This document shows, piece after piece, positions 1 through 50,249 of a DNA stretch of 50,597 bases. The notes under the pieces were generated by a model that was not told where the DNA came from, did not search any database, and was given only the letters and a program-made list of their open reading frames with translations. Position numbers and translations under genes: made by a program. The first letter of the stretch is position 1. The number at the start of each line of letters is the position of its first letter. This DNA comes from Shigella phage S2_02. The stretch lies in the sequence record OQ223306. One strand, 5' to 3'.

Positions 1-127
1 GGGGGGGGAATTGGTGTTACCCAGTTCACCTGGTAGTCATCTCCATTTTTAGCAAAAAGTGCTATCCATTACGATTACGCTTGATTGTGTGTTAATCCAT
101 GTATATGATTTGCCTAAATCGCAATCG
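1..127. repeat. Terminal direct repeat copy 1 (identical to 50471-50597); probable circular-assembly overlap
   Basis: Bases 1-127 (starting with a G8 run) are repeated exactly at the window end; 127 bp is a typical assembler k-mer overlap. Confidence 0.9.
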
Positions 128-342
128 TAGACAAAATTACACCAAATTACGACTTATAATATACATATAGATATATGTATATATATAATATATAAGTGTT
201 TTTTTTATTTATATATATAGATACTATTATTTGTAATATGGCTGTATAGCGTGTCTACTATGTTAATCGTTGGATGCTCTGGTTATGATATTCATGTTTA
301 TATATACAGTAGTTTTATCGGCTCATATTTATATGGGAAAAG

Positions 343-369
343 CGATTAACACGATTAACACGATTAACC
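343..369. repeat. 3 x 9-bp tandem repeat CGATTAACA in early control region
   Basis: cgattaaca cgattaaca cgattaacc read directly; upstream of first rightward gene. Confidence 0.8.
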
Positions 370-413
370 ACACTTAAAATAGGCTCGCAAGCCTTGACGC
401 AAGAGGGTCGCCG

Positions 414-445
414 TGTAACACTATGATTAGAGACATAGTGTTACA
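414..445. promoter_or_regulatory. Perfect 12-bp inverted repeat TGTAACACTATG-N8-CATAGTGTTACA abutting first early gene; candidate operator
   Basis: Palindrome read directly; shares GTGTAACA core with motifs in 30596-30950; a TTGACG -35-like hexamer lies at 394-399. Confidence 0.45.
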
Positions 446-483
446 TGTTAATCATGGTGTATATTGAAAATGAGGAGAAAGAT

Positions 484-1059
484 ATGAGTTCTTACCAATC
501 AGACGCAGTACAGGCAGCAATTCAGGCGGCTTACGAGAAATCTGGCGTGACCGTTGAGAAGCGCCAGGAGGCAAAAGTGACCGATGTTATCCGTGCCGCT
601 TGCGATCAGCTTTATGGTGATGGCGAGAGTGTCGAGTTCTCATTCGACGCTACTCAGATGGCTGAGGCAGCAGTGAGAAAGTCAGTCCCTGACGCTGATG
701 ATGATGCTGTTAGCGGATATGCCGAGTCCTGGTTGCTCGGGAAGACGGAAGAGATTAACGAGAAGTTTAAATCATCATTCATCACCCCGATCGTATCGCG
801 ACACTTCTCCAAAATCGGCAAGTCGGTCAAGGTGAGCGTAACCATGAACGATGAGAAGTTGCGAGTCGTTACTATCTCAGTGAGCGACGAAGAAGTTCCA
901 GTGAAGAAGCGCCGCAGTCGGAAAAAAGTTAGCCTGGCTGATTGCCTGGATTCGTTTGTGGTTGATGTGGGTAAACTGGCTGATAGCGAATTGATGACTC
1001 GCGATGTAAATGAGATCGTGCGCCAGATGAAAGCGCATATCGAAAAATGTGGATTATAA
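484..1059 (+). CDS. hypothetical early protein (191 aa)
   Basis: ORF-track frame 445..1059; ATG 484 preceded by GAGGAG SD at 472-477; first gene of rightward early region. Confidence 0.6.
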   Translation: MSSYQSDAVQAAIQAAYEKSGVTVEKRQEAKVTDVIRAACDQLYGDGESVEFSFDATQMAEAAVRKSVPDADDDAVSGYAESWLLGKTEEINEKFKSSFITPIVSRHFSKIGKSVKVSVTMNDEKLRVVTISVSDEEVPVKKRRSRKKVSLADCLDSFVVDVGKLADSELMTRDVNEIVRQMKAHIEKCGL

Positions 1060-1065
1060 GGAGAG

Positions 1066-1401
1066 GTGACTATGTTTACTAATATGTTTGATCCGAAGGT
1101 GATGGAAAGACGAAAACTGGAAAGCGAGAAGCAGGAAGAGAACATCAAGAAGATAGCTGATGCCGTGACTGGTAAAAAATTAATCAAAGTAAACCTTAAT
1201 ACCATTGGCCCAGCTTACGACTTAAGAGGTCTTGGCAAGAAAGAGGCGTCAGTGAAGGTTCTTAGACTTATTCACGAAATCAAGAATCAGTACAAGATAG
1301 CCCTCAAGATGAAGAGCCTTAATGTTCCGCATTGCGAGCTTGAGAACATTACTGAGCCGGACTGGTGGGAAATCACCGACGTCGAGTTTACCGTAGAATA
1401 G
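1066..1401 (+). CDS. hypothetical protein (111 aa)
   Basis: ORF track; SD AAGGAGAGG before ATG; stop TAG lies inside conserved box 1397-1417. Confidence 0.6.
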   Translation: MTMFTNMFDPKVMERRKLESEKQEENIKKIADAVTGKKLIKVNLNTIGPAYDLRGLGKKEASVKVLRLIHEIKNQYKIALKMKSLNVPHCELENITEPDWWEITDVEFTVE

Positions 1402-1441
1402 CACTTTTTGTTAAAACCGGATCGGGATAACGCGGTATAGT
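1397..1441 (+). promoter_or_regulatory. Early promoter module: 21-bp box (AATAGCACTTTTTGTTAAAAC) + 18 bp + TATAGT
   Basis: Box 1397-1417, -10-like TATAGT 1436-1441 embedded in hairpin GGGATAAC/GTTATCCC; CATCGA start-like motif follows; gene ATG at 1473. Confidence 0.5.
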
Positions 1442-1472
1442 TATCCCATCGACAACGAATGAGGAAACGAAG

Positions 1473-1667
1473 ATGGAAACGAAAATTGACGTAGTGGTTG
1501 TTCAGCGCGATTCAACTCACGAGAAGGGTCTGTTCAAGAAAGGAACCGAAATCACGATCGACCTTGAGGATATGGTTTCGTATCACTCTAGCCTTACCTG
1601 GAATGTTGTGCGCGTAGGTAGCGACTACAAACTCAAAGGCTTTAACACTTACTTTGCGGAGGCTTAA
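1473..1667 (+). CDS. hypothetical protein (64 aa)
   Basis: ORF track; SD GAGGAAACG; about 25 nt downstream of predicted start of module 1397-1441. Confidence 0.55.
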   Translation: METKIDVVVVQRDSTHEKGLFKKGTEITIDLEDMVSYHSSLTWNVVRVGSDYKLKGFNTYFAEA

Positions 1668-1669
1668 TC

Positions 1670-2140
1670 ATGGCGACAATTACCGTATTCCTGGCTAAAG
1701 ATGAGATTGATGGCGAAATGTCATTCTTCGCGTTTGAGCACAAAACCGGATCGCACTGGCACACTTACAGCCATTACACGGTTATCTCAATCGAAGCGTA
1801 CGACGGCGAACTGCTCACTGATAAACTGAGTAATTTCATTGAAGCCGTTAAAGCTAGCGGCGGCTGCGAGTGGAAGGAAGATCACGAAGTTATGCGAATG
1901 TTTGAGATGGTCAATCCGGTTCGCCTTGAGTCGTTCGAGCTTGATGCTAATGTGACTATCAAGGTGAGAAAGTCGGGTGAGTTATTGCCAGGGATGCGTG
2001 TGCTGACTGGTTACTCTGGCCGTAAGGTGTGGCGCACTGTATCCAAGATTCGCCAGCGCTCGGCAACATGCTATAGCGTATTCTTTGATGATGGTTGGAA
2101 TATGATGTCCGGTAGTGAGGTAAAGTATCTCACCAAATAG
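1670..2140 (+). CDS. hypothetical protein (156 aa)
   Basis: ORF track; GAGG SD; stop TAG inside box 2136-2156. Confidence 0.6.
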   Translation: MATITVFLAKDEIDGEMSFFAFEHKTGSHWHTYSHYTVISIEAYDGELLTDKLSNFIEAVKASGGCEWKEDHEVMRMFEMVNPVRLESFELDANVTIKVRKSGELLPGMRVLTGYSGRKVWRTVSKIRQRSATCYSVFFDDGWNMMSGSEVKYLTK

Positions 2141-2180
2141 CACGAATTGCTAAAACCGGATCGGGGTATCTTGCTATAGT
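2136..2180 (+). promoter_or_regulatory. Early promoter module: box AATAGCACGAATTGCTAAAAC + 18 bp + TATAGT
   Basis: Box 2136-2156; TATAGT 2175-2180 in hairpin GGGGTA/TACCCC; CATCGA follows; gene at 2219. Confidence 0.5.
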
Positions 2181-2218
2181 TACCCCATCGAGACGAGATA
2201 CCAATCAGAGGATTCACC

Positions 2219-2449
2219 ATGTCAATCGTAAAAAACCAGCAAGCCATCGATTCAACCAATAACAACCGCTTTGCTATTTTCATCACTCGCGACAACAAGC
2301 GTTTTGCGGTCAAGGTAGTACCGGGTGGATACAATACATACATGGAAGATAACGGAAAATGGGTTCGGTGTGACAACCTCTCAAACTTCCTGGTCTGGAA
2401 TGCAGAACTCCAGGGATTTGATGATATCAGCACTTTAATTGAGGAGTAA
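2219..2449 (+). CDS. hypothetical protein (76 aa)
   Basis: ORF track; SD CAGAGGA in conserved CCAATCAGAGGA context. Confidence 0.55.
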   Translation: MSIVKNQQAIDSTNNNRFAIFITRDNKRFAVKVVPGGYNTYMEDNGKWVRCDNLSNFLVWNAELQGFDDISTLIEE

Positions 2450-2454
2450 TAATC

Positions 2455-2682
2455 ATGCCACGTTACAGCAACCTAACTCAACTGACCCGCGTTAACGGGC
2501 ACATGATTCCAGCAAAATCCACTCACTACGCTATTGGCGCAAAACACGGAGTCTATTTCAAGTGGCGCGGTCAATGGAACTTCACGGCGGTGAGTAATTT
2601 CTACATGCGCGTTCCAGGTGACGACCCGCAATCGGTAGTCGAGAACTCAATCGGCGACCACAAGATCGAGGTACTGAAATGA
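2455..2682 (+). CDS. hypothetical protein (75 aa)
   Basis: ORF track; SD GAGGAG. Confidence 0.55.
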   Translation: MPRYSNLTQLTRVNGHMIPAKSTHYAIGAKHGVYFKWRGQWNFTAVSNFYMRVPGDDPQSVVENSIGDHKIEVLK

Positions 2683-2789
2683 ACTTCAACACGATTGCAT
2701 TATGGTCTGCCGTCTGGTTCTTCTGCATGGGTCACGCCATTGTTGGGATCGTAATCATGTTACTACTGTGTGCCGGAGCGTTTGAATGA
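2679..2789 (+). CDS. small hydrophobic peptide (36 aa), putative membrane micro-protein
   Basis: ATGA overlap with upstream stop; hydrophobic translation MNFNTIALWSAVWFFCMGHAIVGIVIMLLLCAGAFE; below ORF-track size cutoff. Confidence 0.3.
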   Translation: MNFNTIALWSAVWFFCMGHAIVGIVIMLLLCAGAFE

Positions 2790-2959
2790 TGCGCATTCTA
2801 ATTTGCATGATGGCGGCAGTCGCCATAACTATCCTGGTAGTGTCCGGCTGCGGAGAGGTCAAAGAGAGATGCCATGAAACCGGAAACCAGGTTACTACTT
2901 TCGTGATGGTTGGAAACGTATTGCTACCAATCACATCAAATGAAATCACTTGCGAATAA
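2786..2959 (+). CDS. putative small lipoprotein (57 aa)
   Basis: ATGA overlap with previous micro-ORF; N-terminal signal-like segment with lipobox-like VVSGC; stop TAA falls inside box variant 2955-2975. Confidence 0.4.
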   Translation: MMRILICMMAAVAITILVVSGCGEVKERCHETGNQVTTFVMVGNVLLPITSNEITCE

Positions 2960-2999
2960 CACTTTTTGTTAAAACTCAATTCCGGGGTTGCGATATAGT
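2955..2999 (+). promoter_or_regulatory. Early promoter module (variant box AATAACACTTTTTGTTAAAAC + 18 bp + TATAGT) with no sizeable ORF downstream
   Basis: Box shows symmetric half-site change TAACA/TGTTA; TATAGT 2994-2999; only a 24-codon ORF (3069-3143) before next module. Confidence 0.45.
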
Positions 3000-3139
3000 T
3001 ACCCCATCGACAACAACCTGGTCTGCGTCAGCAATGAGCATCTCAAGGCTGTAGGATTCACTGGCGGTATGCATAAAGAGGATTTGTGCTTCGTTCTCGA
3101 AGAAATGCACGGTTACTATCCTGAGTGCGAGTTAGTTTA

Positions 3140-3184
3140 CTAAGCACGAATTGTTAAAAGGGGATTTGTCCTGACTGGTATAAT
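3140..3184 (+). promoter_or_regulatory. Early promoter module: box CTAAGCACGAATTGTTAAAAG + 18 bp + TATAAT
   Basis: TATAAT 3179-3184 in hairpin GGGGATT/AATCCCC; box contains stop TAA of 24-codon ORF; gene at 3215. Confidence 0.5.
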
Positions 3185-3214
3185 CCCCACATCAACCACT
3201 AAGAGGAAATCATT

Positions 3215-3700
3215 ATGTTGAAATTAAACGAGATTAAATTCCCTGTAGTTTTTAACACTATTAGCTGCGGAAAAATAACCTGCCATAGCAAAGATCGCGC
3301 AACTGACTCATCACTTAATGAGTGTCACCCGTCTATTATTTGCAACTTGATTGATTTACACAATAAGCATAATCCTGACAATATCTCATCACTCCCTTAT
3401 TACGTTGAGTATTTTGGTTCTGGCTGGAAAACTGGTCGAGCCATCTTTCATAGCGCAAAGCCAGAAATCAAGCCAATGCTACAGTGTACTCAGATCGAGA
3501 ACATGCCATTGAGCGCCACGATAAAAGGCGTTCAGATTAGCGATGAATCATGGATCGAGATTACCGCCACGCCTAAAACTATTGAGGTACATGATGATGT
3601 GGTGATTCTCCTGTTGCATTACGGCAGCTTTAAGCACAAGACTGTATCAGGAGAAATCAGCATTAAGCGCGGAACGCTTGTACGCTACGAGGTGAAATAA
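3215..3700 (+). CDS. hypothetical protein (161 aa)
   Basis: ORF track; SD AAGAGGAAA. Confidence 0.6.
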   Translation: MLKLNEIKFPVVFNTISCGKITCHSKDRATDSSLNECHPSIICNLIDLHNKHNPDNISSLPYYVEYFGSGWKTGRAIFHSAKPEIKPMLQCTQIENMPLSATIKGVQISDESWIEITATPKTIEVHDDVVILLLHYGSFKHKTVSGEISIKRGTLVRYEVK

Positions 3701-3762
3701 TGAGCAACTGGTATAACGAACATGTAATGCAGTTTTACCGCAATCGCATCAAGAAAGTTTTA

Positions 3763-3807
3763 AATAGCACGAATTGCTAAACCTTCCGCAAGGCCATTTG
3801 ATATAGT
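3763..3807 (+). promoter_or_regulatory. Early promoter module: box AATAGCACGAATTGCTAAACC + 18 bp + TATAGT
   Basis: TATAGT 3802-3807 in hairpin AAGGCCA/TGGCCTT; predicted start about 3814 supports ATG 3848 as gene start. Confidence 0.5.
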
Positions 3808-3847
3808 GGCCTTATTGAAGCATGGCAACCAATCAGAGGAATCAGCT

Positions 3848-4147
3848 ATGAAAATCAGATTAACCAGCAACTACTTTAACCGTGAATCTTTCAAACAATA
3901 CATAATCACAGACGGAATGAATCCTGGCATCATCCTTGATGTGTCCTACAACATTGGCGACGTTATGTTTGTATCAGCAACTGAGCTTGCAAAGTACGCA
4001 AAGCCAGAACATTGTCACCTGGCAGAGCCTCACTTGATCGATGGAAAGGTTACAGATTACGCATTCACCAAAGGTGAGTATGAAATCGTGAGATCTGGAC
4101 CTTTCAGCTTCTGGAACAAACTTAAATCAGGGGAGTTATTCAAATGA
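3848..4147 (+). CDS. hypothetical protein (99 aa)
   Basis: ORF-track frame (track start is GTG 3806); ATG 3848 has SD CAGAGGA and lies downstream of predicted start of module 3763-3807. Confidence 0.55.
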   Translation: MKIRLTSNYFNRESFKQYIITDGMNPGIILDVSYNIGDVMFVSATELAKYAKPEHCHLAEPHLIDGKVTDYAFTKGEYEIVRSGPFSFWNKLKSGELFK

Positions 4148-4431
4148 GCAAAACTCATAAGTTAAAAATTGCCCCGATACATTTCATTGGTGTAATGAAC
4201 GGAGCCAAAACGGCAGAGTTCCGCATCAATGACCGCAACTTCCAGGTTGGTGATATCCTTGAGCTACGCGAGTTCGATCGTGACGAGTTTACCGGGTGGG
4301 AAGTTCACGCCAGGGTGTCCGATGTTACAGACGTGACGCCATACATCAATCGCGGTTATGACGAGCAAGAATGCGACTTCACGCAATACGTGATGTTATC
4401 AATCAAGCCTTACAGGAAGGTTAGACCATGA
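4144..4431 (+). CDS. putative ASCH/PUA-like (DUF3850-like) domain protein (95 aa)
   Basis: ORF track; N-terminal pattern KLKIAPIHF...GAKTAEFRINDRNFQVGDILELRE recalls ASCH-type small phage proteins (from memory, unverified). Confidence 0.4.
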   Translation: MSKTHKLKIAPIHFIGVMNGAKTAEFRINDRNFQVGDILELREFDRDEFTGWEVHARVSDVTDVTPYINRGYDEQECDFTQYVMLSIKPYRKVRP

Positions 4432-5066
4432 AATTTGAGTGCGTATCAAGTAGCGGATCTGGTTTTAAGTGGGGAAAAACTTACAAAGGTGTTCGCGTAA
4501 ATGATGACAGCTTCATCATTACTGATGAGAACGATTGCAACGTGAACGTTGTACGGCGTCACGAATATCAGGAAATTTTCCTGCCTTATGGCGGTAGCTC
4601 AAAATATATCTTCCATCGAATCGTGGATGGTGTTAAATTTAAAGACGTAATCGAAGCAATCAACCAACTGCATAATAAAGAGGTCAAATTTATGAAATTC
4701 GAATGTATCAGTGATAACACCAAAAAATTTACCGTTGGCAAAATCTACGACGTGCCTACTGAGCACGCAAAGCACACTGTAGCACTGACCGACGACACGG
4801 GTCGCCACCGCATTGCAACCGTAACGCACAACTGTGAAGGTCTTCGCTGGAATAGCGGCGGAACTAAGTTCGCAACGTTCGGCAAGAAGCGCAAGCGTAC
4901 TTTCTGCGTTAATGGAAAGGTTACAGCGAACAAGATCCACAACGTCAAGCCGTCAGAAGTTGACCGTAAGCCAGCGACGAAGTTTGAAGAAAAGGCAGAT
5001 TTGTCTGGTCTGGCTATCGCTCTTGTTCTCCTGGTTGCTTCGATTTCGCTGCTATTCATCATGTAA
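4428..5066 (+). CDS. membrane-anchored protein with internally duplicated N-terminal domain (212 aa)
   Basis: ORF track; two segments each starting MKFEC(V/I)S; C-terminal hydrophobic helix LSGLAIALVLLVASISLLFIM. Confidence 0.6.
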   Translation: MKFECVSSSGSGFKWGKTYKGVRVNDDSFIITDENDCNVNVVRRHEYQEIFLPYGGSSKYIFHRIVDGVKFKDVIEAINQLHNKEVKFMKFECISDNTKKFTVGKIYDVPTEHAKHTVALTDDTGRHRIATVTHNCEGLRWNSGGTKFATFGKKRKRTFCVNGKVTANKIHNVKPSEVDRKPATKFEEKADLSGLAIALVLLVASISLLFIM

Positions 5067-5073
5067 TGCTAAT

Positions 5074-5107
5074 GGGGAATCGGCTCTGAACGGTTCCCCT
5101 TTCTTTT
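5074..5107 (+). terminator. Rho-independent terminator
   Basis: GGGGAA...TTCCCC hairpin followed by TTTCTTTT directly after stop of 4428..5066. Confidence 0.6.
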
Positions 5108-5214
5108 GGAGAAAACACTATGCCAGACTTTTCTAATTGGAATAACGAGCCGCCATCATTTCAGGAGTTGCTATTTTGCCTCCTGATCCTGACACTATCT
5201 CTTAAGGGTGTTTT

Positions 5215-5433
5215 ATGGCTACTATCATGACAGCAGAAGATGCAGCACGCGAAGCAGTGGAAGGAATGCGCCCAAATAGCTCCAGAATCGCCCACTACTA
5301 CAAATTTGAGGTGTCGGCAGTGCAATTGGTCCATGAAATTTTAAGGCTCCCACAAGTCGATTCAGCGCGCGTGGTGACGTGCTTAAAAAATTATTTTTGC
5401 ATCACTATTAAAACGAATAGCACGAATTGCTAA
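5215..5433 (+). CDS. hypothetical protein (72 aa)
   Basis: ORF track; weak SD; C-terminus NSTNC and stop are encoded by box 5416-5436; an alternative 36-codon hydrophobic ORF 5120-5230 has a better SD. Confidence 0.4.
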   Translation: MATIMTAEDAAREAVEGMRPNSSRIAHYYKFEVSAVQLVHEILRLPQVDSARVVTCLKNYFCITIKTNSTNC

Positions 5434-5460
5434 AACTTGCTCAAGGGCATTTGTTAGAAT
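5416..5460 (+). promoter_or_regulatory. Early promoter module: box AATAGCACGAATTGCTAAAAC + 18 bp + TGtTAGAAT
   Basis: -10-like TAGAAT 5455-5460 in hairpin AAGGGCAT/ATGCCCTT; gene at 5501. Confidence 0.5.
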
Positions 5461-5500
5461 GCCCTTCGTTGAGTTAAGCAACTAATCAGAGGAATAAATC

Positions 5501-6034
5501 ATGGATAAAATCACAATTTGGGGCCAGACAATCAACCTGTTTCTCGGCACTCGCCGCGTGGCAATCTTTGACTTCGACGGAACACTGAGTGACGGCTCAA
5601 AACGTCTTCACCTGCTACCGACGAAAGATTTGCACTTAACGGAAAGCTGGTCTGAGTTCAACCGCGCGGCAATATTTGACAATCCTATACGTAGTACGAT
5701 TGATGTGATGAACTCCATGTTTGCAGCTGGGTATCATGTGATCATTTTAACCGGGCGAAGCGATGAGGTGCGTTACGCATCTGAGTTATGGCTTAAGCAT
5801 CACGGCGCGCGATATGATTACTTAATCATGAGGCCGCATACCGACAACCGCAAAGACACGGTAATGAAAGAAGAGGCAGTGCGCGCTATCGGCATTGAGA
5901 ACATCCTGGCGGCTTGGGAAGACTCACCGCAAATTATTCCATTATTCCGGTCGCTTGGGATAACCACTTACGCTGTAGTTGACTATGGCGATAAAGTCCA
6001 CGATCATTTAAAATCTCACGGGGTAGAGAAATGA
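5501..6034 (+). CDS. HAD-superfamily phosphatase-like protein (177 aa)
   Basis: ORF track; N-terminal IFDFDGTLSD (DxDGT) motif and downstream ILTGR motif typical of HAD phosphatases. Confidence 0.65.
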   Translation: MDKITIWGQTINLFLGTRRVAIFDFDGTLSDGSKRLHLLPTKDLHLTESWSEFNRAAIFDNPIRSTIDVMNSMFAAGYHVIILTGRSDEVRYASELWLKHHGARYDYLIMRPHTDNRKDTVMKEEAVRAIGIENILAAWEDSPQIIPLFRSLGITTYAVVDYGDKVHDHLKSHGVEK

Positions 6035-6141
6035 ACCTATACGAATTTATTGCAGAACATCCGGTATTGACGGTTATCATCCTGCTAATCATCAATCACA
6101 CTATCATCAATGTAGCAAAATTATTTTTAGGGAGATACTGA
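6031..6141 (+). CDS. small hydrophobic peptide (36 aa)
   Basis: ATGA overlap with phosphatase stop; translation MNLYEFIAEHPVLTVIILLIINHTIINVAKLFLGRY; ends 1 nt before kinase ATG. Confidence 0.3.
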   Translation: MNLYEFIAEHPVLTVIILLIINHTIINVAKLFLGRY

Positions 6142-6142
6142 C

Positions 6143-6715
6143 ATGAAAACAGCTATCGTTTTAAACGGCGCGCCTGGAGCGGGAAAAGACACTATCGGAT
6201 GCATCCTGGCTGACACTTACGATCACGTAGCCTTGCGCAGCTTCAAAGCGCCAATGTTTGAGATTGCCCGGGCAATCCTGGGTGAAGCTAACTACGAGTA
6301 TTTCATGTTCTTGTATGAGGACCGTCGATATAAAGAAGAGCCAGCATCCATCCTGAACGGTAAAAGCCCACGCCAGTTTATGATCTGGATTAGCGAAGAA
6401 GTCATCAAGCCGCAGTTCGGAAATCGCTTCTTCGGTATGCGAGCGGAAAGCAAGGTGAAAGAGTCGCACTCCCTTTCGGTATTTACTGACGGTGGATTCA
6501 AAGATGAGATCTTGCAAATGATTGAAGGCGATATCCAAGTCAAGCTATGCCGCATACATCGCAACGGCTGCAACTTCGATAACGACAGTCGAGATTATAT
6601 CTACCTGGATAATATGATCGGTGTCAACGGTTATCAGGAATGTGACTTCTTCTCTGTCGAAGGTCATCCAGAAATTACCGCTCAGCACATAGCCGCCACG
6701 TTCATCAATAAATAG
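6143..6715 (+). CDS. P-loop nucleotide/nucleoside kinase-like protein (190 aa)
   Basis: ORF track; Walker A GAPGAGKDT at N-terminus; stop TAG inside box 6711-6731. Confidence 0.65.
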   Translation: MKTAIVLNGAPGAGKDTIGCILADTYDHVALRSFKAPMFEIARAILGEANYEYFMFLYEDRRYKEEPASILNGKSPRQFMIWISEEVIKPQFGNRFFGMRAESKVKESHSLSVFTDGGFKDEILQMIEGDIQVKLCRIHRNGCNFDNDSRDYIYLDNMIGVNGYQECDFFSVEGHPEITAQHIAATFINK

Positions 6716-6755
6716 CACGAATTGCTAAAACGTCGATGGGGTGATTTGATATAGT
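6711..6755 (+). promoter_or_regulatory. Early promoter module: box AATAGCACGAATTGCTAAAAC + 18 bp + TATAGT
   Basis: TATAGT 6750-6755; flanking 9-bp stem CGATGGGGT/ACCTCATCG has one G-T (G.U) pair; gene at 6788. Confidence 0.5.
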
Positions 6756-6787
6756 TACCTCATCGACAACGAAGAGAGAAAATCGAA

Positions 6788-6997
6788 ATGATGGTATCAA
6801 CTGATAAGTTTTTCACTTGCACTAAAACCTCTGAAGTATTCGAACTCGTTCATACTGATAACGGTGATTTCATGCATGACGGTTGCGACGTTTTTATCGA
6901 AGTGAAAGAAAGCGACTATGATGACGGAGTTTATTATAACCCGGCAGTGAACACTCAGTTCTTTACACCGATCGAAGAAGAAGGAGAAGAGGCATGA
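6788..6997 (+). CDS. small acidic protein (69 aa)
   Basis: ORF track; strongly acidic C-terminus (ESDYDDGVYY...EEEGEEA). Confidence 0.5.
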   Translation: MMVSTDKFFTCTKTSEVFELVHTDNGDFMHDGCDVFIEVKESDYDDGVYYNPAVNTQFFTPIEEEGEEA

Positions 6998-7338
6998 TTA
7001 CGATTAACTTGTCAGATAAACAAGCGCGCGAACTCCTGGGCACGATTGGTGAACAGCTTCACGTAAAAGGTGCTACGGCTGAATTGCTTAACCAGATCGA
7101 CAGGAAGCTTACACCAGTGTCGACGAATCAAGCTGAGTTTGCAGCATGGAAAAGCGAACGCATTACGCCAAACATTATCAGGGCGTGGAAGAGTAAGCAC
7201 AAAAAAGAAATCAATGTTGAGGATTTATTTACCGATGAATTAAGCCCTTCAAAGGTTGCTCAATATCAGTTGCGATACATGGAGTCGGTTTGCAATCAGG
7301 TTTTAGATGTTAACTTCTCATTTGGTGGAGGTAAATAA
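6994..7338 (+). CDS. hypothetical protein (114 aa)
   Basis: ORF track; ATGA overlap with upstream gene. Confidence 0.55.
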   Translation: MITINLSDKQARELLGTIGEQLHVKGATAELLNQIDRKLTPVSTNQAEFAAWKSERITPNIIRAWKSKHKKEINVEDLFTDELSPSKVAQYQLRYMESVCNQVLDVNFSFGGGK

Positions 7339-7568
7339 TGTTCGGTTTAAGTGAAGTGGAATGGAACGTAGTAAAGCGCGCGGCGAAGGAATTAAATAAA
7401 TTCGTTAGCGGCATGAAGAAGGAAGATCGTAAAAACGACAAGATTATGATTGACGTAATCTCAACTCACCACAAAAAGGTCGAGCCACTCATCGACCGCT
7501 ACAAATTTGTCTGGACTGCCGGGTATATTGCCGGTCGCGTAGGTAACAAAGAATGGGATTACGAATAA
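7338..7568 (+). CDS. hypothetical protein (76 aa)
   Basis: ORF track; TAATG overlap with upstream stop. Confidence 0.5.
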   Translation: MFGLSEVEWNVVKRAAKELNKFVSGMKKEDRKNDKIMIDVISTHHKKVEPLIDRYKFVWTAGYIAGRVGNKEWDYE

Positions 7569-7771
7569 TGGCTAATTTACCGAAGAAAGGCGATCAGGTT
7601 CGATGCATCACGTCACGCAATAGCGATGCTTTCTCGGCGGGATGCGCGTACGACGTTGAAAAAGTCAGTAAATCAAAGAAAATTGTATTCGTGTACGGGG
7701 ATGATGGAAATCTGCATGAGATTGACTACCCGCAGGATGTGACTAATGGTCAATTCGAAATTAATGATTGA
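7568..7771 (+). CDS. hypothetical protein (67 aa)
   Basis: ORF-track frame 7553..7771; ATG 7568 overlaps upstream TAA (TAATG) so preferred over 7553. Confidence 0.45.
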   Translation: MANLPKKGDQVRCITSRNSDAFSAGCAYDVEKVSKSKKIVFVYGDDGNLHEIDYPQDVTNGQFEIND

Positions 7772-7935
7772 CCTACGCCACTGAGCGGTGATAGCATTAA
7801 TCCCGTAGACAGACTAGGCGCAATTAAGCGCAACGCGTGAGACGACTCTCACACTCCCAGCTAACAAGCTCGGTTGCATAGTGGTTAAGCAACGCCGCAG
7901 ACCCGTAAGCGGCAATAATTCAAGAGGATTGCATA

Positions 7936-8097
7936 ATGCAAAACACTAAAGATGAATCAGTCAAAATTGAAATTAAAGTAACTCGCAACGGTGAAACCAC
8001 TAGTTATAAAAAACGATTAAATCCTGGCGAGGCTGTTATTGGTCGAATTGCTGGCGTTATGATTAAGGCGCAGGAAGATGAAGCGATTCAAAGTTAA
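7936..8097 (+). CDS. hypothetical small protein (53 aa)
   Basis: ATG with SD AAGAGGA; below ORF-track cutoff; follows a 164-bp non-coding gap. Confidence 0.35.
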   Translation: MQNTKDESVKIEIKVTRNGETTSYKKRLNPGEAVIGRIAGVMIKAQEDEAIQS

Positions 8098-8264
8098 ATT
8101 AATCATTCGAAAGATGGGAATGTTTTGCCAGTCGTGCAAGCAATCTTTCGAAACTGAATTATCAGCAACCAGTCAGGCAGAAGCCATCACGAAAGCAAAA
8201 AAACTTTCCGGCGCTAATCTTGACACTCACAAAATAAACATTGAATTAATCAAGGAGATTTAAC

Positions 8265-8492
8265 ATGACCATTTTTTTATTGATTCTTGCTGGTATCGTT
8301 ATTTTTGGTGCTGGTTTGTTTGCTGGATTCGCACTTGTGGCGGCAGCAATTGCGATGGACGCGAAGAATAAAACTGGTGTATGGCTGACCTACTCGCCTA
8401 AGAAGGACCAATGGGAAATGACTGGCGACCTTGCTCACTGCTACTCTAAAGCACAGACCCACCCAAAAGGCATTAAACGACGATTATCGTGA
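8265..8492 (+). CDS. small membrane protein (75 aa)
   Basis: ORF track; SD AAGGAG; N-terminal hydrophobic segment IFLLILAGIVIFGAGLFAGFALVAAAIA. Confidence 0.55.
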   Translation: MTIFLLILAGIVIFGAGLFAGFALVAAAIAMDAKNKTGVWLTYSPKKDQWEMTGDLAHCYSKAQTHPKGIKRRLS

Positions 8493-8501
8493 TAAATACT
8501 A

Positions 8502-8524
8502 ACCCGCTTCGGCGGGTTTTTTTA
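8502..8524 (+). terminator. Rho-independent terminator closing the rightward early region
   Basis: CCCGC-TTCG-GCGGG hairpin followed by T7. Confidence 0.7.
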
Positions 8525-8535
8525 TGCCTGCAATA

Positions 8536-8561
8536 TGGTAAAATAACACTAAATGTTAAAC
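8536..8561 (+). promoter_or_regulatory. Putative late promoter (extended -10 TGgTAAAAT) overlapped by box copy AATAACACTAAATGTTAAAC
   Basis: TGGTAAAAT 8536-8544; box 8542-8561 spans predicted start and abuts TerS SD. Confidence 0.4.
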
Positions 8562-8576
8562 AAAGAGGATGGATTT

Positions 8577-9101
8577 ATGAGTGAACCTAAGAACGTTCCC
8601 GTTGTTCAGGGGGGTAATTTCAAAGAGCTATACAAGAAAAAGTTCGGCACTGTTCTTGCGAAGAACCGGGCAATGACACCAGAGCAACTATTCGATCTGT
8701 CAGTGAAGTATTTCGAATGGGCCGAGGACAACGCAATCAAGGCGTCAGAATCAGCCAGCTTTCAGGGTGGCGTTTATGAATCGCTTGTCCATAAGCCGCG
8801 CGTCTTCACCTGGACCGGATACCGACTATTTATCGGTGCAAGCGAGGCTGCAATCATTAAGTGGAAGCGAGAGGAAGAGTACAGTGAGGTTATGGAGTTT
8901 GTGGAATCGGTAATCAACGAGCAAAAATTCCAGCTTGCCGCCAACGGTGTTATTAATGCCTCCTTTATCGGTAAGGATCTCGGAATCGATAAGCCAACCT
9001 CAATAAATATCGAAAACTCGTCAGCCTCCGCATCGACAGTAGTCGCCACTACTGAGGATGCAATGAAGGACGCGGTAGACAAGGTTATTGGATTGCTGTA
9101 G
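8577..9101 (+). CDS. terS: terminase small subunit (174 aa)
   Basis: ORF-track frame 8553..9101; ATG 8577 has SD AGAGGA; position immediately upstream of TerL in packaging module. Confidence 0.55.
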   Translation: MSEPKNVPVVQGGNFKELYKKKFGTVLAKNRAMTPEQLFDLSVKYFEWAEDNAIKASESASFQGGVYESLVHKPRVFTWTGYRLFIGASEAAIIKWKREEEYSEVMEFVESVINEQKFQLAANGVINASFIGKDLGIDKPTSINIENSSASASTVVATTEDAMKDAVDKVIGLL

Positions 9102-9129
9102 TATCTTACCCACGGATGGGTAACATTTT

Positions 9130-9705
9130 ATGGGTTTGACTATGAACACAGGATTAGCAAGAGAAGTAAGTTCAGATGATGAGGCGTGGTTGTTGGAGCA
9201 CGTATATTACGACGAATCATCACCTACATCGTTGAGATTTAAGAACATGTTTCATAGGAATAAGGAAAACTCCGCCGCATTCAGGGAGGTTACTAAAGAC
9301 GGTTATTTTAGAGGTCAGCGCGGTAGTAGGGGTAGGAGGTTTTTTGCTCATCGCGTGGTGTGGTTCCTTCATTATGGGGTATGGCCTGAAAAAATAGATC
9401 ACATTGATGGTGACAGACAAAACAATGCAGTAAAAAACCTGCAAGAAACTGACGCGATGAGGAATCAGCAGAATAGAGATTGCAATGATATTGCTGGTGG
9501 ATATTTTGAGAAAAGGGTTGGTCGATGGCATTGCAGGATTAAGAGGAAAGGCAAGGTAACATTCATTGGTTATTTTGACACTCCGGAAGAATGTAGAGCA
9601 GCATACGCGAAAGCGAAATTAGAAATTCATGAAAACTTGTGTGAAAGGTCATTTAATGAAGGGGAGTTGAAAAATGTTGCAATGGGAAGAGTTAAACAAT
9701 CTTGA
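9130..9705 (+). CDS. HNH endonuclease with AP2-like domain (191 aa)
   Basis: ORF track; HNH motif region HRVVWFLHYG...IDHIDGDRQNN; paralog of 38762..39241 and 49475..50002; overlaps TerL start by 32 nt. Confidence 0.75.
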   Translation: MGLTMNTGLAREVSSDDEAWLLEHVYYDESSPTSLRFKNMFHRNKENSAAFREVTKDGYFRGQRGSRGRRFFAHRVVWFLHYGVWPEKIDHIDGDRQNNAVKNLQETDAMRNQQNRDCNDIAGGYFEKRVGRWHCRIKRKGKVTFIGYFDTPEECRAAYAKAKLEIHENLCERSFNEGELKNVAMGRVKQS

Positions 9706-11242: not shown

Positions 11243-11260
11243 TAAATGAGATATAATCAA

Positions 11261-11287
11261 GGCTGTCAATTGACGGCCTTTTTTATT
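11261..11287 (+). terminator. Hairpin + T-run between TerL and portal (attenuator-like)
   Basis: GGCTGTCAATTGACGGCC palindrome followed by TTTTTTATT, then SD GGAGGA of portal. Confidence 0.45.
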
Positions 11288-11296
11288 GGAGGAAAC

Positions 11297-12580
11297 ATGA
11301 AAATTGTTAAGCATGATGGATATAACGATATCTTTAACGGCGGTGCAGACGGATCGCCTAAGCCATTCTTTATGTCTGATGCATCATATCACGTAGGATC
11401 TTTCTACAACGACAACGCAACCGCGAAGCGAATTGTGGATGTTATCCCGGAAGAGATGGTGACGGCTGGATTTAAAATGTCAGGCGTCAAGGATGAAAAA
11501 GAGTTCAAGTCTCTGTGGGATAGTTACAAAATTGATTCTAGCTTGGTTGACGTTCTTTGCTGGGCGAGACTATACGGTGGGGCTGCTATTGTGGCAATCA
11601 TCAAAGACAACAGAATGCTAACCAGCCCCGTTAAACCTGGCGCTAAACTTGAGGGCGTGCGTGTTTACGATCGATTTGCAATCACCGTTGAAAAGAGAGT
11701 AACCAATGCTCGATCGCCTCGCTATGGTGAGCCTGAGATATACAAGGTATCTCCTGGCGATAATCTTCAACCTTACTTAATCCACCACACAAGAATTTTT
11801 ATTGCTGATGGTGAGCGAGTAACCCCTCAGATTCGCAAGCAGAATCAGGGGTGGGGTGCTTCAGTTTTGAATAAGTCACTGATTGATGCAATCTGCGACT
11901 ACGACTATTGCGAATCACTTGCGACTCAGATCCTGCGGCGTAAGCAACAGGCGGTATGGAAGGTCAAAGGTCTTGCCGAAATGTGCGATGATGACGATGC
12001 TCAGTATGCTGCGCGCCTGCGACTTGCTCAGGTTGATGACAACTCCGGAGTAGGCCGTGCGATCGGTATCGATGCTGAGACGGAAGAATACGATGTTCTA
12101 AACTCTGATATCAGCGGAGTGCCTGAGTTCTTATCGAGCAAGATGGATCGTATTGTTTCCCTTTCAGGGATTCATGAGATTATCATCAAAAATAAGAACG
12201 TAGGCGGCGTATCAGCGAGCCAAAACACAGCGCTTGAGACTTTCTATAAGCTGGTAGATCGTAAGCGTGAGGAAGATTACAGGCCTCTTCTTGAGTTCTT
12301 GCTGCCGTTCATTGTTGACGAGCAAGAGTGGTCGATCGAGTTTGAGCCTTTGTCTGTTCCGAGTAAGAAAGAGGAATCAGAGATCACGAAGAATAACGTT
12401 GAGTCAGTCACGAAAGCTATCACTGAGCAAATCATCGATCTGGAAGAAGCTCGAGACACGTTGCGATCCATTGCCCCTGAGTTCAAACTCAAGGATGGTA
12501 ATAACATCAACATTCGCGAACAGGAAGAAACAACCGAACCGGAACCGGGATTAGGGGAGAAGTTAGAAGATGAAAATTAA
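11297..12580 (+). CDS. portal protein (427 aa)
   Basis: ORF-track frame 11246..12580; ATG 11297 has SD GGAGGA; size and position after TerL. Confidence 0.85.
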   Translation: MKIVKHDGYNDIFNGGADGSPKPFFMSDASYHVGSFYNDNATAKRIVDVIPEEMVTAGFKMSGVKDEKEFKSLWDSYKIDSSLVDVLCWARLYGGAAIVAIIKDNRMLTSPVKPGAKLEGVRVYDRFAITVEKRVTNARSPRYGEPEIYKVSPGDNLQPYLIHHTRIFIADGERVTPQIRKQNQGWGASVLNKSLIDAICDYDYCESLATQILRRKQQAVWKVKGLAEMCDDDDAQYAARLRLAQVDDNSGVGRAIGIDAETEEYDVLNSDISGVPEFLSSKMDRIVSLSGIHEIIIKNKNVGGVSASQNTALETFYKLVDRKREEDYRPLLEFLLPFIVDEQEWSIEFEPLSVPSKKEESEITKNNVESVTKAITEQIIDLEEARDTLRSIAPEFKLKDGNNINIREQEETTEPEPGLGEKLEDEN

Positions 12581-42713: not shown

Positions 42714-42742
42714 AACCACATCGAAAACAAAGAGGATATATC

Positions 42743-42919
42743 ATGAAGCGAGTTAAGTGCATCCGAAATGACTCCAAAACACTTCCATTCCGCGTAAATC
42801 AGATCTATAGTGTTGGTTATGATTTCGGTGGTGGATTATTTGAGATTTACGACGGGCGAGATTCAGCAATCCAATCTCCCCTGAATGGTCATTATCTGGA
42901 ATTTATTGAGATAGATTAA
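42743..42919 (+). CDS. hypothetical small protein (58 aa)
   Basis: ATG with SD AAAGAGGA downstream of module 42669-42713; below ORF-track cutoff; followed by terminator. Confidence 0.45.
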   Translation: MKRVKCIRNDSKTLPFRVNQIYSVGYDFGGGLFEIYDGRDSAIQSPLNGHYLEFIEID

Positions 42920-47287: not shown

Positions 47288-47333
47288 AATATACCTTACT
47301 CCCTGCTGATTGTCTTTAGCTATTCGTGCTATC
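47288..47333 (-). promoter_or_regulatory. Leftward early promoter module (box + 19 bp + TATATT)
   Basis: Box 47313-47333; -10 within hairpin GGGAGTAA/TTACTCCC (47282-47303). Confidence 0.45.
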
Positions 47334-47475
47334 AGTACTCAGAAATTACTTTGCACTCTTTGATTGTGCCGCCTAGAACTACTTTCTGCATCATTGCTTT
47401 TTGGTGGCTATCGTAGACGCGAACATTTTTTACGCTGTTAAATTTGCCAGTATAGAAAGTGTGAATATAAATCAT
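47332..47475 (-). CDS. hypothetical small protein (47 aa)
   Basis: ATGA overlap with upstream gene stop; stop TGA adjoins box; below ORF-track cutoff. Confidence 0.3.
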   Translation of the reverse strand: MIYIHTFYTGKFNSVKNVRVYDSHQKAMMQKVVLGGTIKECKVISEY

Positions 47476-48404: not shown

Positions 48405-48449
48405 ACTATACCAGCCATCCCGGATGCGCGTTTAGCAAAAAGTGCTATT
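48405..48449 (-). promoter_or_regulatory. Leftward early promoter module (box + 18 bp + TATAGT)
   Basis: Box 48429-48449; minus-strand TATAGT at 48405-48410; CATCC start-like motif. Confidence 0.5.
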
Positions 48450-48609
48450 CGATAACTTCCTTTGGAACGACCTTGATCTCATCAAAGAAGTTAGTCCTGT
48501 CATTCTCAGTGAGATTCTTGATCTCGTTAGCTTTGCTCTCGGTCGAGCATATCTCGATCAGTTCGTCACCTTCATAGTAGATGGTTCCAACCACGCAATA
48601 TACGATCAT
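48445..48609 (-). CDS. hypothetical small protein (54 aa)
   Basis: ATGA overlap with stop of 48606..48986; stop TAG inside box 48429-48449; below ORF-track cutoff. Confidence 0.35.
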   Translation of the reverse strand: MIVYCVVGTIYYEGDELIEICSTESKANEIKNLTENDRTNFFDEIKVVPKEVIE

Positions 48610-50114: not shown

Positions 50115-50249
50115 TTATCGCTTACCCTGACCGTTGCAGGCCGGACACGTAATTCTCTGCATCATCCAGACTCCAGAGACTTCAGTGAATAACGGAACCA
50201 TAGTAAATCCACGACCAGCACACTGACTACAAATCTGTTTAACTCTCAT
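50115..50249 (-). CDS. small zinc-ribbon-like protein (44 aa)
   Basis: ATG with SD AGAGGAAG; two CxxC pairs (CSQC ... CPAC); below ORF-track cutoff. Confidence 0.4.
   Translation of the reverse strand: MRVKQICSQCAGRGFTMVPLFTEVSGVWMMQRITCPACNGQGKR

Follow-up and report, generated by a model that had tools for sequence, protein, structure and literature searches.

Introduction

About half of the genes of phage T1 have no known role. In the T1 record, Orf73 (AAP49927) and Orf72 (AAP49928) are both entered as 'hypothetical protein'; a single transmembrane domain is noted for Orf73, and the lipobox and hairpin described below are unremarked. Both are direct orthologues of the gene pair studied here, with equal lengths (36 and 57 aa), order and ATGA overlaps and with 86-88% amino-acid identity, and in both genomes the pair follows homologues of Orf75 and Orf74 in equal order. 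Several better-characterized envelope proteins are also relevant. Colicin lysis (bacteriocin release) lipoproteins and entericidins are encoded by mobile elements, act on the envelope and have mature parts of about 25-35 residues; in contrast to the 57-aa protein, they have neither paired cysteines nor the core motif of its hairpin. T5 Llp is a lipidated periplasmic protein with a Cys11-Cys58 disulphide that ties its termini together, and its interface covers 1,640 Å2. The 57-aa protein resembles T5 Llp and Cor of T1 and phi80 in being a small phage lipoprotein with periplasmic action, both of which are predictions in its case. However, its predicted mature part is about half the size (36 versus about 60 residues), it has no sequence or fold similarity to them, it lies off the tail/receptor-binding locus and it has lipobox-less variants. 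T4 Imm is an early small membrane protein that confers superinfection immunity without regard to the receptor and at a step that follows adsorption. Spackle is described as an early, periplasmic superinfection-immunity protein that likewise acts post-adsorption and receptor-independently (PMC7677548). At 83 aa and 97 aa, Imm and Sp exceed the focal products in size, neither is a lipoprotein, and their likeness to the focal pair is a functional analogy without homology.

Here, we analysed a window of 50,597 nucleotides (record OQ223306), which by sequence comparison is the complete T1-like (Tunavirus) genome of Shigella phage S2_02. A sequence-only reading had listed eight micro-ORFs in it, described as unannotated and chained by ATGA overlaps, with the pair at 2679-2959 at their head. 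All eight are present as described and their coordinates hold. Our literature search (T1 Orf72/Orf73, the Shfl1 orthologue and the PHROG families) found no paper on the focal ORFs; the UniRef entry for the Shfl1 orthologue of the 57-aa protein is named 'Lipoprotein'.

Materials and Methods

For the focal pair, 24 related loci were compared, corresponding to 17 distinct sequences, and the neighbouring 75-aa gene (cistron 2 in Table 1) served as positive control for the coding tests. The genome-wide null consisted of 132 scorable ORFs of 25-60 aa from the same regions as the listed small ORFs, and an ORF passed the filter if no fewer than 90% of relatives kept it intact and its dN/dS was below 0.3. 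In the right arm, the 126-aa gene as anchor yielded 3 loci, and whole regions from annotated records were used instead. The evidence base is small for 48445-48609 (9 records) and for 50115-50249 (4 records). Lipoproteins were searched for by the PROSITE PS51257 rule, which asks for a basic residue in the first 7, an uncharged hydrophobic stretch and a Cys between residues 15 and 35, together with the lipobox pattern [LIVMFWSTAG]2-[LIVMFYSTAGCQ]-[AGS]-C.

Table 1. Positions of the features discussed, numbered along the window.
Feature	Position	Strand	Remarks
Intergenic box, upstream copy, TTGCTAAAAC-N19-TATAGT	2147..2180	+	Left edge of four-cistron module
Cistron 1, 76-aa T1 Orf75-like protein	2219..2449	+	Also kept in divergent relative L025
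Cistron 2, 75-aa T1 Orf74-like protein	2455..2682	+	Pfam DUF7274, 130 bits; dN/dS 0.134
Cistron 3, predicted 36-aa single-pass membrane peptide	2679..2789	+	T1 Orf73, phrog_25570
Cistron 4, predicted 57-aa lipoprotein precursor	2786..2959	+	T1 Orf72, phrog_8628
Predicted signal peptide, residues 1-21	2786-2848	+	57-aa protein
Lipobox Cys22	2849-2851	+	57-aa protein
Hairpin cysteine C29	2870-2872	+	57-aa protein
Turn G43-N44	2912-2917	+	57-aa protein
Hairpin cysteine C56	2951-2953	+	57-aa protein
Intergenic box, downstream copy	2966..2999	+	5' extension AATAACACTTTTTG holds lipoprotein TAA stop
36-aa membrane micro-ORF, T1 Orf67-like	5120..5230	+	Absent from the sequence-only list; 15 distinct sequences, 93% of them intact; dN/dS 0.225; membrane character by hydropathy
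36-aa membrane peptide between polynucleotide kinase and dNMP kinase genes	6031..6141	+	Intact 13/13, dN/dS 0.095
53-aa soluble protein, T1 Orf57, phrog_6666	7936..8097	+	Intact 14/14, dN/dS 0.097; PHROG E=1e-33; own AGAGGA Shine-Dalgarno
58-aa standalone SH3-like protein, T1 Orf14, DUF7244, phrog_4788	42743..42919	+	Intact 9/10, dN/dS 0.177; upstream of lysis cassette
47-aa protein, T1 Orf4, phrog_3955	47332..47475	-	Intact 14/14, dN/dS 0.064; PHROG E=2.7e-26
54-aa accessory protein	48445..48609	-	Subset of Tunavirus genomes only; intact 3/3, dN/dS 0.126
44-aa mini-protein with DnaJ-type zinc-finger motif, CSQCAGRG...CPACNGQG	50115..50249	-	Start at internal ATG at 50249, AGAGGA Shine-Dalgarno

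Results

The focal ORFs close a four-gene module (2219-2959) as its cistrons 3 and 4, and the module has a copy of an intergenic box at each end. The box is a repeated element, TTGyTAAAAC-N19-TATAGT, with 18 matches against 2.7 expected, and it is oriented like the genes. As the sequence-only reading had proposed for such boxes, a stop codon is carried within one: the TAA of the lipoprotein gene falls within the 5' portion of the 2966 copy. We call the module early, a timing suggested solely by its left-arm position in a T1-type genome. A canonical sigma-70 scan of positions 1-9000 returned 16 promoter-like sites compared to 18.1 in shuffled sequence, and thus promoters give no handle on expression timing.

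The TGA of cistron 2 overlaps the start of the 36-aa ORF as ATGA, with GAGG at 2668-2671, and the TGA of the 36-aa ORF overlaps the ATG of the 57-aa ORF in the same way, with GGAG at 2775-2778. Both junctions are invariant (17/17 distinct sequences) though flanking bases vary, which argues that the coupling itself is under selection. The proposed check in related genomes favoured both frames: each is intact in 17/17, the variable sites at codon positions 1/2/3 number 9/8/25 in the 36-aa ORF and 10/9/38 in the 57-aa ORF, and dN/dS is 0.075 and 0.117, respectively. Three other ORFs at the same place were rejected, namely an antisense 74-aa ORF at 2755-2979 (intact in just 1/17) and two plus-strand ORFs overlapping the pair at 2702-2785 (3/18) and 2770-2877 (9/17). 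Their dN/dS ranges from 0.5 to 3.2, with 1.4 and 3.2 in the alternative frames.

Conservation of this kind might reflect RNA, regulation or spacing instead of functional proteins, or the 36-aa ORF might be a coupling uORF that feeds the lipoprotein gene. The invariant ATGA junctions would agree with such a role, as would L025, the sole divergent relative, in which the 36-aa ORF is missing and the lipoprotein homologue comes directly after the upstream gene. However, a pure spacer uORF would leave the amino-acid sequence unconstrained, whereas the peptide is nearly constant at about 82% nucleotide identity, third positions make up 25 of its 42 variable sites and the alternative frames have dN/dS above 1. 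We therefore regard a non-protein explanation as highly improbable; the situation in L025 does imply that the two proteins need not act together. By frame conservation, codon-position bias and dN/dS, the focal pair are genuine coding genes under strong purifying selection, translationally coupled via the ATGA overlaps. Taken as a whole, the data are in our view best explained by real, coupled orthologues of T1 Orf73 and Orf72 that encode a membrane peptide and an exported hairpin lipoprotein, and we consider this reading likely.

The product of 2679-2789(+) is MNFNTIALWSAVWFFCMGHAIVGIVIMLLLCAGAFE. Its GRAVY is 1.62, it contains no Lys or Arg, its most hydrophobic 19-residue window scores 2.49, and it is predicted to be a single-pass membrane micro-protein. 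C16, H19 and C31 are conserved, and a profile search matched phrog_25570 over 1-36/36 (E=3.6e-27).

The 57-aa protein matched phrog_8628 over 6-65/66 (E=2e-28) in a profile search; Pfam gave no match at E<=10 and NCBIfam none at E<=1. Following the PS51257 rule, it has R3, hydrophobic residues 4-18 and the lipobox V-V-S-G-C22. Out-of-frame noise aside, the only other positive ORFs in the window were two internal positives, the u-spanin and the tail-locus lipoprotein. The lipobox is kept in 12 of the 14 distinct Tunavirus proteins, and DELF2 carries C22F, SH6 carries G21V and the +2 residue varies (G, V, S, D). Homologues beyond the genus are few. They reside in high-GC phage-like contigs, within runs of small overlapping genes, and their E-values before iteration are marginal (5e-4 to 9e-4); in four of them (P0024-26, P0030) the lipobox is present, the two cysteines are the usual distance apart and G43/P48/I49/E53 are unchanged, and across distant homologues G43, P48, I49, E53 and C56 are invariant. 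Two variants without lipobox (P0021, P0028) still keep the hairpin. The signal peptide would direct export of the product, and the Lgt/LspA pathway would lipidate Cys22 in most lineages; the existence of variants without the Cys (P0021, P0028 and DELF2 C22F) means that not all family members are lipidated. Frameshifted alleles (P0019, P0020, P0022, L014) and a deletion fusion (P0029) also exist, from which we read the gene as dispensable. The frameshifted alleles may reflect sequencing errors.

In the AlphaFold2 model the 57-aa protein consists of a signal helix (2-20) and one beta-hairpin (strands 31-42 and 45-56, pLDDT 88-93) between the two conserved cysteines. Accordingly modelled, the predicted mature protein has 36 residues, with a 6-residue tether and a 26-28-residue beta-hairpin. 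A C29-C56 disulfide, suggested by conservation and by proximity in the model, probably clamps the open end of the hairpin, with the qualification that in a simple register C56 lies opposite residue 31, not 29. The hairpin tip (TTFVMVGNVLLPIT) is hydrophobic on both faces in the model. Searches with the helix-plus-hairpin model gave a best E=2 against the PDB with Foldseek, with no Llp entry among the matches, and a best E=0.076 and nothing usable in BFVD. Periplasmic action appears favoured over a strict outer-membrane site, because lipobox-less variants keep the hairpin, DELF2 and SH6 have altered lipoboxes and the +2 residue varies.

Among the 132 scorable small ORFs, 9 pass the filter, and these include all 6 scorable ORFs of the sequence-only list; the remaining ones have a median dN/dS of 1.27 and a median intact fraction of 0.54. 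Two that pass, 44292-44402 and 46274-46420, are antisense to large genes and were judged artefacts of shared third positions. The reading of the listed ORFs as real small genes, whose products range from membrane peptides to one lipoprotein and one zinc-ribbon protein, is borne out by frame conservation, codon-position bias, dN/dS, the lipobox rule, hydropathy and the CxxCxGxG motif, and on these sequence criteria they are real conserved protein genes beyond chance. Two parts of the description hold only in part. ATGA chaining applies to five of the eight (2679, 2786, 6031, 47475(-), 48609(-)), whereas those at 7936, 42743 and 50249(-) are free-standing with AGAGGA-type Shine-Dalgarno sequences. 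'Unannotated' is correct relative to the ORF track that had been supplied, but not in general: T1 (AY216660) lists five of the eight as Orfs 73, 72, 57, 14 and 4, and the focal pair and 6031-6141 are annotated in ULIM2 and LeonhardEuler. The zinc-ribbon ORF alone is usually unannotated. For five of the eight the PHROG match is strong, and for a sixth it is weak.

We take the further ORF at 5120-5230 to be a real small gene as well; T1 Orf67, its counterpart, is annotated as single-TM. The ORF at 6031-6141 overlaps the kinase stop as ATGA and has no PHROG match; its position in T1 is taken by an HNH endonuclease gene. The 42743-42919 product matched the SH3-clan Pfam family DUF7244 over positions 1-57/57 (95.6 bits, cut-off 27), and its gene has the same place as in KanT1, with the exonuclease gene on one side and the holin on the other. 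This standalone SH3 protein of Drexlerviridae was described in 2026 (PMC13164509), and a lysis-assisting role has been proposed for it. On the minus strand, the starts of 47332-47475 and 48445-48609 overlap the stops of their upstream genes (128 aa and 126 aa, respectively) as ATGA. The 48445-48609 protein occurs in 9 phage records at 94-98% amino-acid identity and has weak matches to DUF7336 and phrog_3002. For 50115-50249, the proposed internal start (44 aa) is correct. A 57-aa form starting at 50288 was rejected, since that ATG lies inside an intergenic box and is ATA in SA30RD; LHE71 annotates the gene from the internal ATG. In an alignment of UP30, LHE71, SA30RD and Enterobacter phage Phc, the ORF has an in-frame 9-nt indel and both CxxC pairs are kept. 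It shares CxxCxGxG units with the DnaJ central domain, but it has two repeats, the motif for one zinc centre, and no J domain, whereas the DnaJ domain criterion is four repeats with two zinc centres. With PF00684 at 29.1 bits, under the cut-off of 32.7, the sequence has DnaJ motif resemblance only, not family membership.

Discussion

Neither focal protein was tied to a function by homology in the Pfam, NCBIfam and fold searches. A small phage lipoprotein with a conserved cysteine pair flanking its termini resembles T5 Llp, and T1-like phages depend on receptors of the FhuA/TonB-dependent type. The 57-aa lipoprotein might then be a miniature exclusion factor of the Llp/Cor type, which would attach to the phage's own outer-membrane receptor (FhuA or another TonB-dependent transporter) from the periplasmic side and shut its phage-binding loops allosterically. 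However, a receptor-linked lipoprotein is already encoded elsewhere in the genome, at the tail locus (30286-30516). The gene at this locus encodes Cor in T1 and a PF24052 protein here (87 bits, the positive control for that profile), and the mature parts of the two are about 20% identical, whereas the 57-aa protein remains 88% identical between T1 and the window and thus does not appear receptor-linked. Its gene, at 2786 in the left-arm small-gene block, is not beside tail-fibre or receptor-binding genes and does not vary along with the receptor module. No BLASTP alignment was obtained with T1 Cor or with the PF24052 protein of the window, neither NF047972 nor PF24052 matched, and no Llp emerged from the PDB fold search. 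Moreover, a 28-residue hairpin is far below the Llp interface, and lipobox-less variants occur. Membership of the Cor/Llp families (NF047972; PF24052) was ruled out, as sequence, profile and fold comparisons all failed to match and the gene is not linked to the receptor locus, and an Llp-like mechanism seems unlikely to us.

A 36-aa mature lipoprotein next to a 36-aa, extremely hydrophobic peptide without basic residues would also have the right size for a membrane-damaging or lysis-modulating module, similar to colicin lysis lipoproteins, entericidins or small hydrophobic toxins, that tunes envelope permeability or lysis timing; both faces of the hairpin tip being hydrophobic would suit this. 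Yet the Pfam families of colicin lysis proteins (Lysis_col) and entericidins gave no match at a threshold as loose as E<=10, and membership of both was ruled out. In addition, the pair belongs to the small genes of the left arm, and 40 kb separate it from the pinholin/SAR-endolysin/u-spanin cassette (42975-44142), which accounts for T1 lysis according to the T1 annotation. A role in lysis is therefore improbable. The focal pair is restricted to about 55 Tunavirus records, and an accessory, genus-restricted and sometimes lost pair among early small genes has the typical profile of counter-defence genes. The proteins could counter defence or stress responses that the host mounts at its membranes (anti-defence, host takeover) and not be directed at other phages, but no likeness to a known anti-defence protein was seen, and we find this explanation rather doubtful.

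As our best guess, which is tentative and for which we claim only a minor share of the probability, the 57-aa protein is a dispensable early periplasmic factor, probably for receptor-independent superinfection immunity. On this view, the hairpin would act in the periplasm as an effector that the phage makes early and can do without; it would bind a component of the host envelope through beta-strand or hydrophobic-tip interaction and alter the envelope to the benefit of the phage. The most plausible benefit would be receptor-independent superinfection immunity, in which entry of a second phage is blocked post-adsorption, like by T4 Imm/Spackle, and the 36-aa membrane peptide may be a lineage-specific helper. 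It is tempting to speculate further that the mature lipoprotein is the prototype of an unrecognised class of minimal phage effectors, tethered and disulfide-clamped hairpins of T1-like coliphages and unrelated high-GC phages, that act by beta-strand augmentation onto a periplasmic host machine, for example as a TonB-box mimic. T1 is a TonB-dependent phage, the TonB box reads [DE]-T-[ILM]-[VT]-V, and the strand TTFVMV is loosely similar to it. Such a mimic might sequester TonB or jam TonB-dependent transporters generally and so provide T1 with receptor-independent superinfection immunity. This would explain both the lack of co-variation with the Cor-type lipoprotein and the retention of the hairpin in differently anchored variants, but we see it as a long shot.

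Conclusions

The findings are largely ordinary. Most of these genes were already known to exist, as proteins of unknown function, via the T1 annotation, and since most are in T1's 2004 annotation, later re-annotations and PHROGs, the gene calls add little. In practice, about 9 real genes of this 50-kb genome, three of them for 36-aa membrane peptides, escape notice when a length cut-off is applied, and the same small genes are left out of some deposited Tunavirus records. Of the three predicted lipoproteins of the genome, two have envelope roles that are already defined (exclusion, spanin), and the 57-aa protein is the third. With a single hairpin, it would be near the smallest conceivable folded effector, and if it blocks an envelope machine, it may offer a compact, easily synthesised probe or inhibitor scaffold.

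Results

Genomic context and reading frames

In megablast searches with 2200-3300 and 1-12000 against 50,697 phage records, the sequence matched solely T1-like siphoviruses (Tunavirus, Drexlerviridae), the closest being ULIM2, Lg3, Shfl1 and T1 at about 92% identity. The 50,597 bases are a complete T1-type genome in which the genes are ordered as in T1: small rightward genes make up the left arm, terminase and structural genes come next, and the right arm has the lysis cassette together with small genes that run leftward. The focal pair belongs to a four-cistron module (Orf75-like, Orf74-like [DUF7274], 36-aa ORF, 57-aa ORF) between the copies at 2147 and 2966 of a repeated intergenic box. The ATGA start of the 36-aa ORF includes the stop of the upstream 75-aa gene and that of the 57-aa ORF includes the stop of the 36-aa ORF; the spacing of GAGG (2668-2671) and GGAG (2775-2778) upstream of the two starts suits a Shine-Dalgarno sequence. 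The sequence-only reading had listed eight micro-ORFs chained by such overlaps. All were found at their coordinates, and the chaining holds at 2679, 2786, 6031, 47475(-) and 48609(-), but not at 7936, 42743 and 50249(-), which have free-standing AGAGGA-type ribosome-binding sites.

The proposal that boxes carry stop codons was also borne out, since the lipoprotein TAA lies inside the 5' part of copy 2966, and several ORFs terminating within the box end in the peptide NSTNC. The consensus is roughly AATAnCACnnnTTGyTAAAAC-N19-TATAGT, with 18 matches at up to three mismatches versus 2.7 expected; in both arms, every copy runs in the direction of the genes. Its 19-nt spacer includes a short GC hairpin, and its hexamers are 22 nt apart, a wider spacing than a canonical sigma-70 promoter allows. 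Rho-independent terminators are annotated at equivalent sites in the SA30RD and SA32RD records. A 26-aa ORF (3700-3780, +), directly coupled to a 161-aa gene, also terminates within the box (LNSTNC); as T1 has the 49-aa Orf69 at the equivalent position, this ORF seems to be a form of Orf69 that is truncated or interrupted by the box.

Intergenic box copies and micro-ORFs with counterparts in the T1 record
Feature	Position	Strand	Source
Intergenic box copies	1408, 2147, 2966, 3151, 3774, 5427, 6722, 40692, 42680	+	Repeat scan
Intergenic box copies	48405, 49018, 49435	-	Repeat scan
T1 Orf73, "single transmembrane domain predicted"	2679-2789	+	AY216660
T1 Orf72	2786-2959	+	AY216660
T1 Orf57	7936-8097	+	AY216660
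T1 Orf14	42743-42919	+	AY216660
T1 Orf4	47332-47475	-	AY216660

Coding evidence

Conservation was assessed in 24 related loci, twelve anchored on the neighbouring 75-aa gene and the rest taken from annotated records; anchoring on this gene instead of on the micro-ORFs avoids ascertainment bias. Both focal reading frames, for which a conservation analysis had been suggested, are intact in each of the 17 distinct sequences. Variable sites at codon positions 1/2/3 number 9/8/25 in the 36-aa ORF (dN/dS 0.075) and 10/9/38 in the 57-aa ORF (dN/dS 0.117), and the control, the 75-aa gene, has a dN/dS of 0.134. The null set consisted of every ORF of 25-60 aa within 1-9000 and 42000-50597 (160 in total), and 132 of them had enough relatives for scoring. 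Nine were intact in at least 90% of relatives with dN/dS below 0.3, among them all six scorable ORFs of the sequence-only reading, and those that failed had a median dN/dS of 1.27. The three others are a 36-aa membrane ORF at 5120-5230 and two ORFs antisense to large leftward genes, 44292-44402(+) (dN/dS 0.22; opposite a 135-aa gene) and 46274-46420(+) (0.15; opposite 138-aa/543-aa genes). These two were rejected, their conservation probably being an artefact of shared third codon positions. Around the focal pair, an antisense 74-aa ORF (2755-2979; intact in 1/17) and two overlapping plus-strand ORFs (dN/dS 1.4 and 3.2) were ruled out as genes. Both focal ATGA junctions are unchanged in all 17 sequences and adjacent bases vary; that the stretch is non-coding or kept purely by a coupling constraint is highly improbable. 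We are confident that the focal ORFs are real, translationally coupled genes, one for a membrane micro-protein and the other for a small hairpin protein that is exported and usually lipidated.

In Shigella phage vB_SsoS_008 (MK335533; loci L014/L024), many otherwise conserved genes carry frameshifts or indels: the homologue of T1 Orf16 is fragmented, and the reading frames of the lipoprotein and several micro-ORFs are disrupted. These disruptions are probably sequencing errors.

Annotation and the other micro-ORFs

The description of the ORFs as unannotated does not hold in general, five being listed in the T1 record (which cites PMID 14972552); it fits the zinc-ribbon ORF (50115-50249, -), annotated solely in LHE71. 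The focal pair and the 6031-6141 ORF are annotated in ULIM2 and LeonhardEuler, and the 36-aa ORFs are left out of the Shfl1, SA30RD, SA32RD and XJA18 records. PHROG families of unknown function match five ORFs strongly and 48445-48609(-) weakly; 6031-6141 had no PHROG match. By tblastn, 48445-48609 is present in nine records (94-98% identity). The 42743-42919 product is Pfam DUF7244, described as a standalone SH3 domain tied to the Drexlerviridae lysis module (KanT1 paper, 2026; PMC13164509).

By tblastn, the zinc-ribbon ORF was found in UP30, LHE71 and SA30RD, with a more distant version in Enterobacter phage Phc. In the alignment, its upstream ATG is part of the intergenic box and reads ATA in SA30RD. 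The internal ATG is conserved together with its AGAGGA, a deletion of 9 nt in UP30 and LHE71 keeps the frame, and even Phc retains both CxxC pairs. The 44-aa call of the sequence-only reading is therefore correct.

The 5120-5230(+) ORF (MPDFSNWNNEPPSFQELLFCLLILTLSLKGVLWLLS), absent from the earlier list, is homologous to T1 Orf67; among 15 distinct sequences its frame is intact in 93% (dN/dS 0.225), and it overlaps the start of a 72-aa Orf66-like gene. Between its polynucleotide kinase and dNMP kinase genes, T1 has an HNH endonuclease gene (AY216660, 5465-5959); the same interval holds the 36-aa membrane ORF (6031-6141) in the window and most relatives. The T1 counterpart appears to have been displaced by homing-endonuclease insertion.

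Properties of the focal proteins

The 36-aa peptide is, as predicted from the sequence, extremely hydrophobic (GRAVY 1.62), without Lys or Arg and with invariant C16, H19, C31 and C-terminal GAFE, which fits a single-pass membrane micro-protein. It is missing from the one divergent relative (L025), in which the homologue of the lipoprotein comes immediately after the DUF7274 gene.

The 57-aa protein has the lipobox ascribed to it: R3, a hydrophobic core and VVSGC22 fit the PROSITE rule for lipoproteins. When all combinations of start and stop codons in the window were scanned, just two further matches were in frame and conserved, the u-spanin (43738-44142) and a lipoprotein at the tail-fibre ("cor") locus (30286-30516, -). 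AlphaFold2 predicts a signal helix (2-20) and one beta-hairpin (strands 31-42 and 45-56, turn G43-N44), with hairpin pLDDT of 71-85 using the Tunavirus-only alignment and 88-93 using a broadened one. In this model C29 and C56 flank the hairpin's open end and may form a disulfide. A reading of the protein as a TonB-box-like beta-strand mimic, jamming TonB-dependent entry, seems very doubtful.

Divergent homologues P0021 and P0028 lack the lipobox Cys; their N-terminus is still hydrophobic, and the hairpin is retained with its two cysteines. The lipobox is broken by C22F in DELF2 (L007) and G21V in SH6 (L004), orthologous to window 2846-2851, and the +2 residue varies (G, V, S, D), being Asp in IME18. 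Asp at +2 is the classical inner-membrane retention signal. Given these variants, strict outer-membrane sorting is unlikely to be essential, and the conserved element would be the hairpin in the periplasm.

Distribution and relation to known families

By tblastn, both focal proteins occur only in about 55 Escherichia/Shigella Tunavirus records, always together. A search of 5.8 billion proteins gave 22 clusters, and a profile search of 1.84 billion representatives three marginal additions (P0024-26; E 5e-4 to 9e-4); iteration added solely P0028 and P0030. P0024-26 have the whole architecture (lipobox, first Cys, core T-x-Y-V-M-x-G-x-x-x-x-P-I, then E-x-x-C), and G43, P48, I49, E53 and C56 are invariant throughout the combined alignment. 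P0026 lies on a 91-kb contig of 56-58% GC within a series of small, overlapping genes; PHROG families match two of the neighbouring genes. These hits indicate that the hairpin-lipoprotein family is small yet extends beyond T1-like phages.

P0029 (103 aa; contig of 49,985 bases) is a natural fusion of lipoprotein residues 1-37 to the C-terminal part of a 212-aa membrane protein (window 4428-5066), which implies a roughly 2-kb deletion of the intervening region in a near-full-length T1-like genome. Frameshifted alleles also exist, some of which may be sequencing errors (vB_SsoS_008 has many broken genes). Because of the fusion and these alleles, the 57-aa gene appears to be dispensable.

The 76-aa tail-locus lipoprotein (Pfam PF24052, 87 bits) occurs in 291 phage records across Dhillonvirus, Klebsiella Drexlerviridae, Kuravirus and others. 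The locus holds Cor in T1 and the PF24052 protein in the window, ISF002 and EF3-1; the 17-residue signal peptides are identical, but the mature parts only about 20% identical, which suggests a swapped receptor-linked exclusion allele. This lipoprotein differs between T1 and the window while the 57-aa protein is conserved (~88% identical), so the 57-aa gene does not follow the receptor module.

Discussion

What the focal pair does can be proposed only tentatively. The favoured possibility is an early accessory periplasmic effector that would confer receptor-independent superinfection immunity, resembling T4 Imm/Spackle in logic. An anti-defence factor is a less likely alternative. The 57-aa protein matched neither Cor nor Llp, which speaks against a miniature Llp/Cor receptor blocker, and neither colicin lysis proteins nor entericidins, which speaks against an envelope-permeabilising or lysis-timing module; we regard both as improbable, to the same degree. 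It matched no Pfam/NCBIfam model, and a search for a structural neighbour found none.

ORFs orthologous to these genes have stood in the T1 annotation since 2004, and PHROGs already cover most of them. This study adds quantitative proof of coding, a corrected start for the zinc-finger ORF and the extra micro-ORF at 5120-5230, and it recognises a small family of hairpin lipoproteins that has distant homologues in phages and is unrelated to Cor or Llp.
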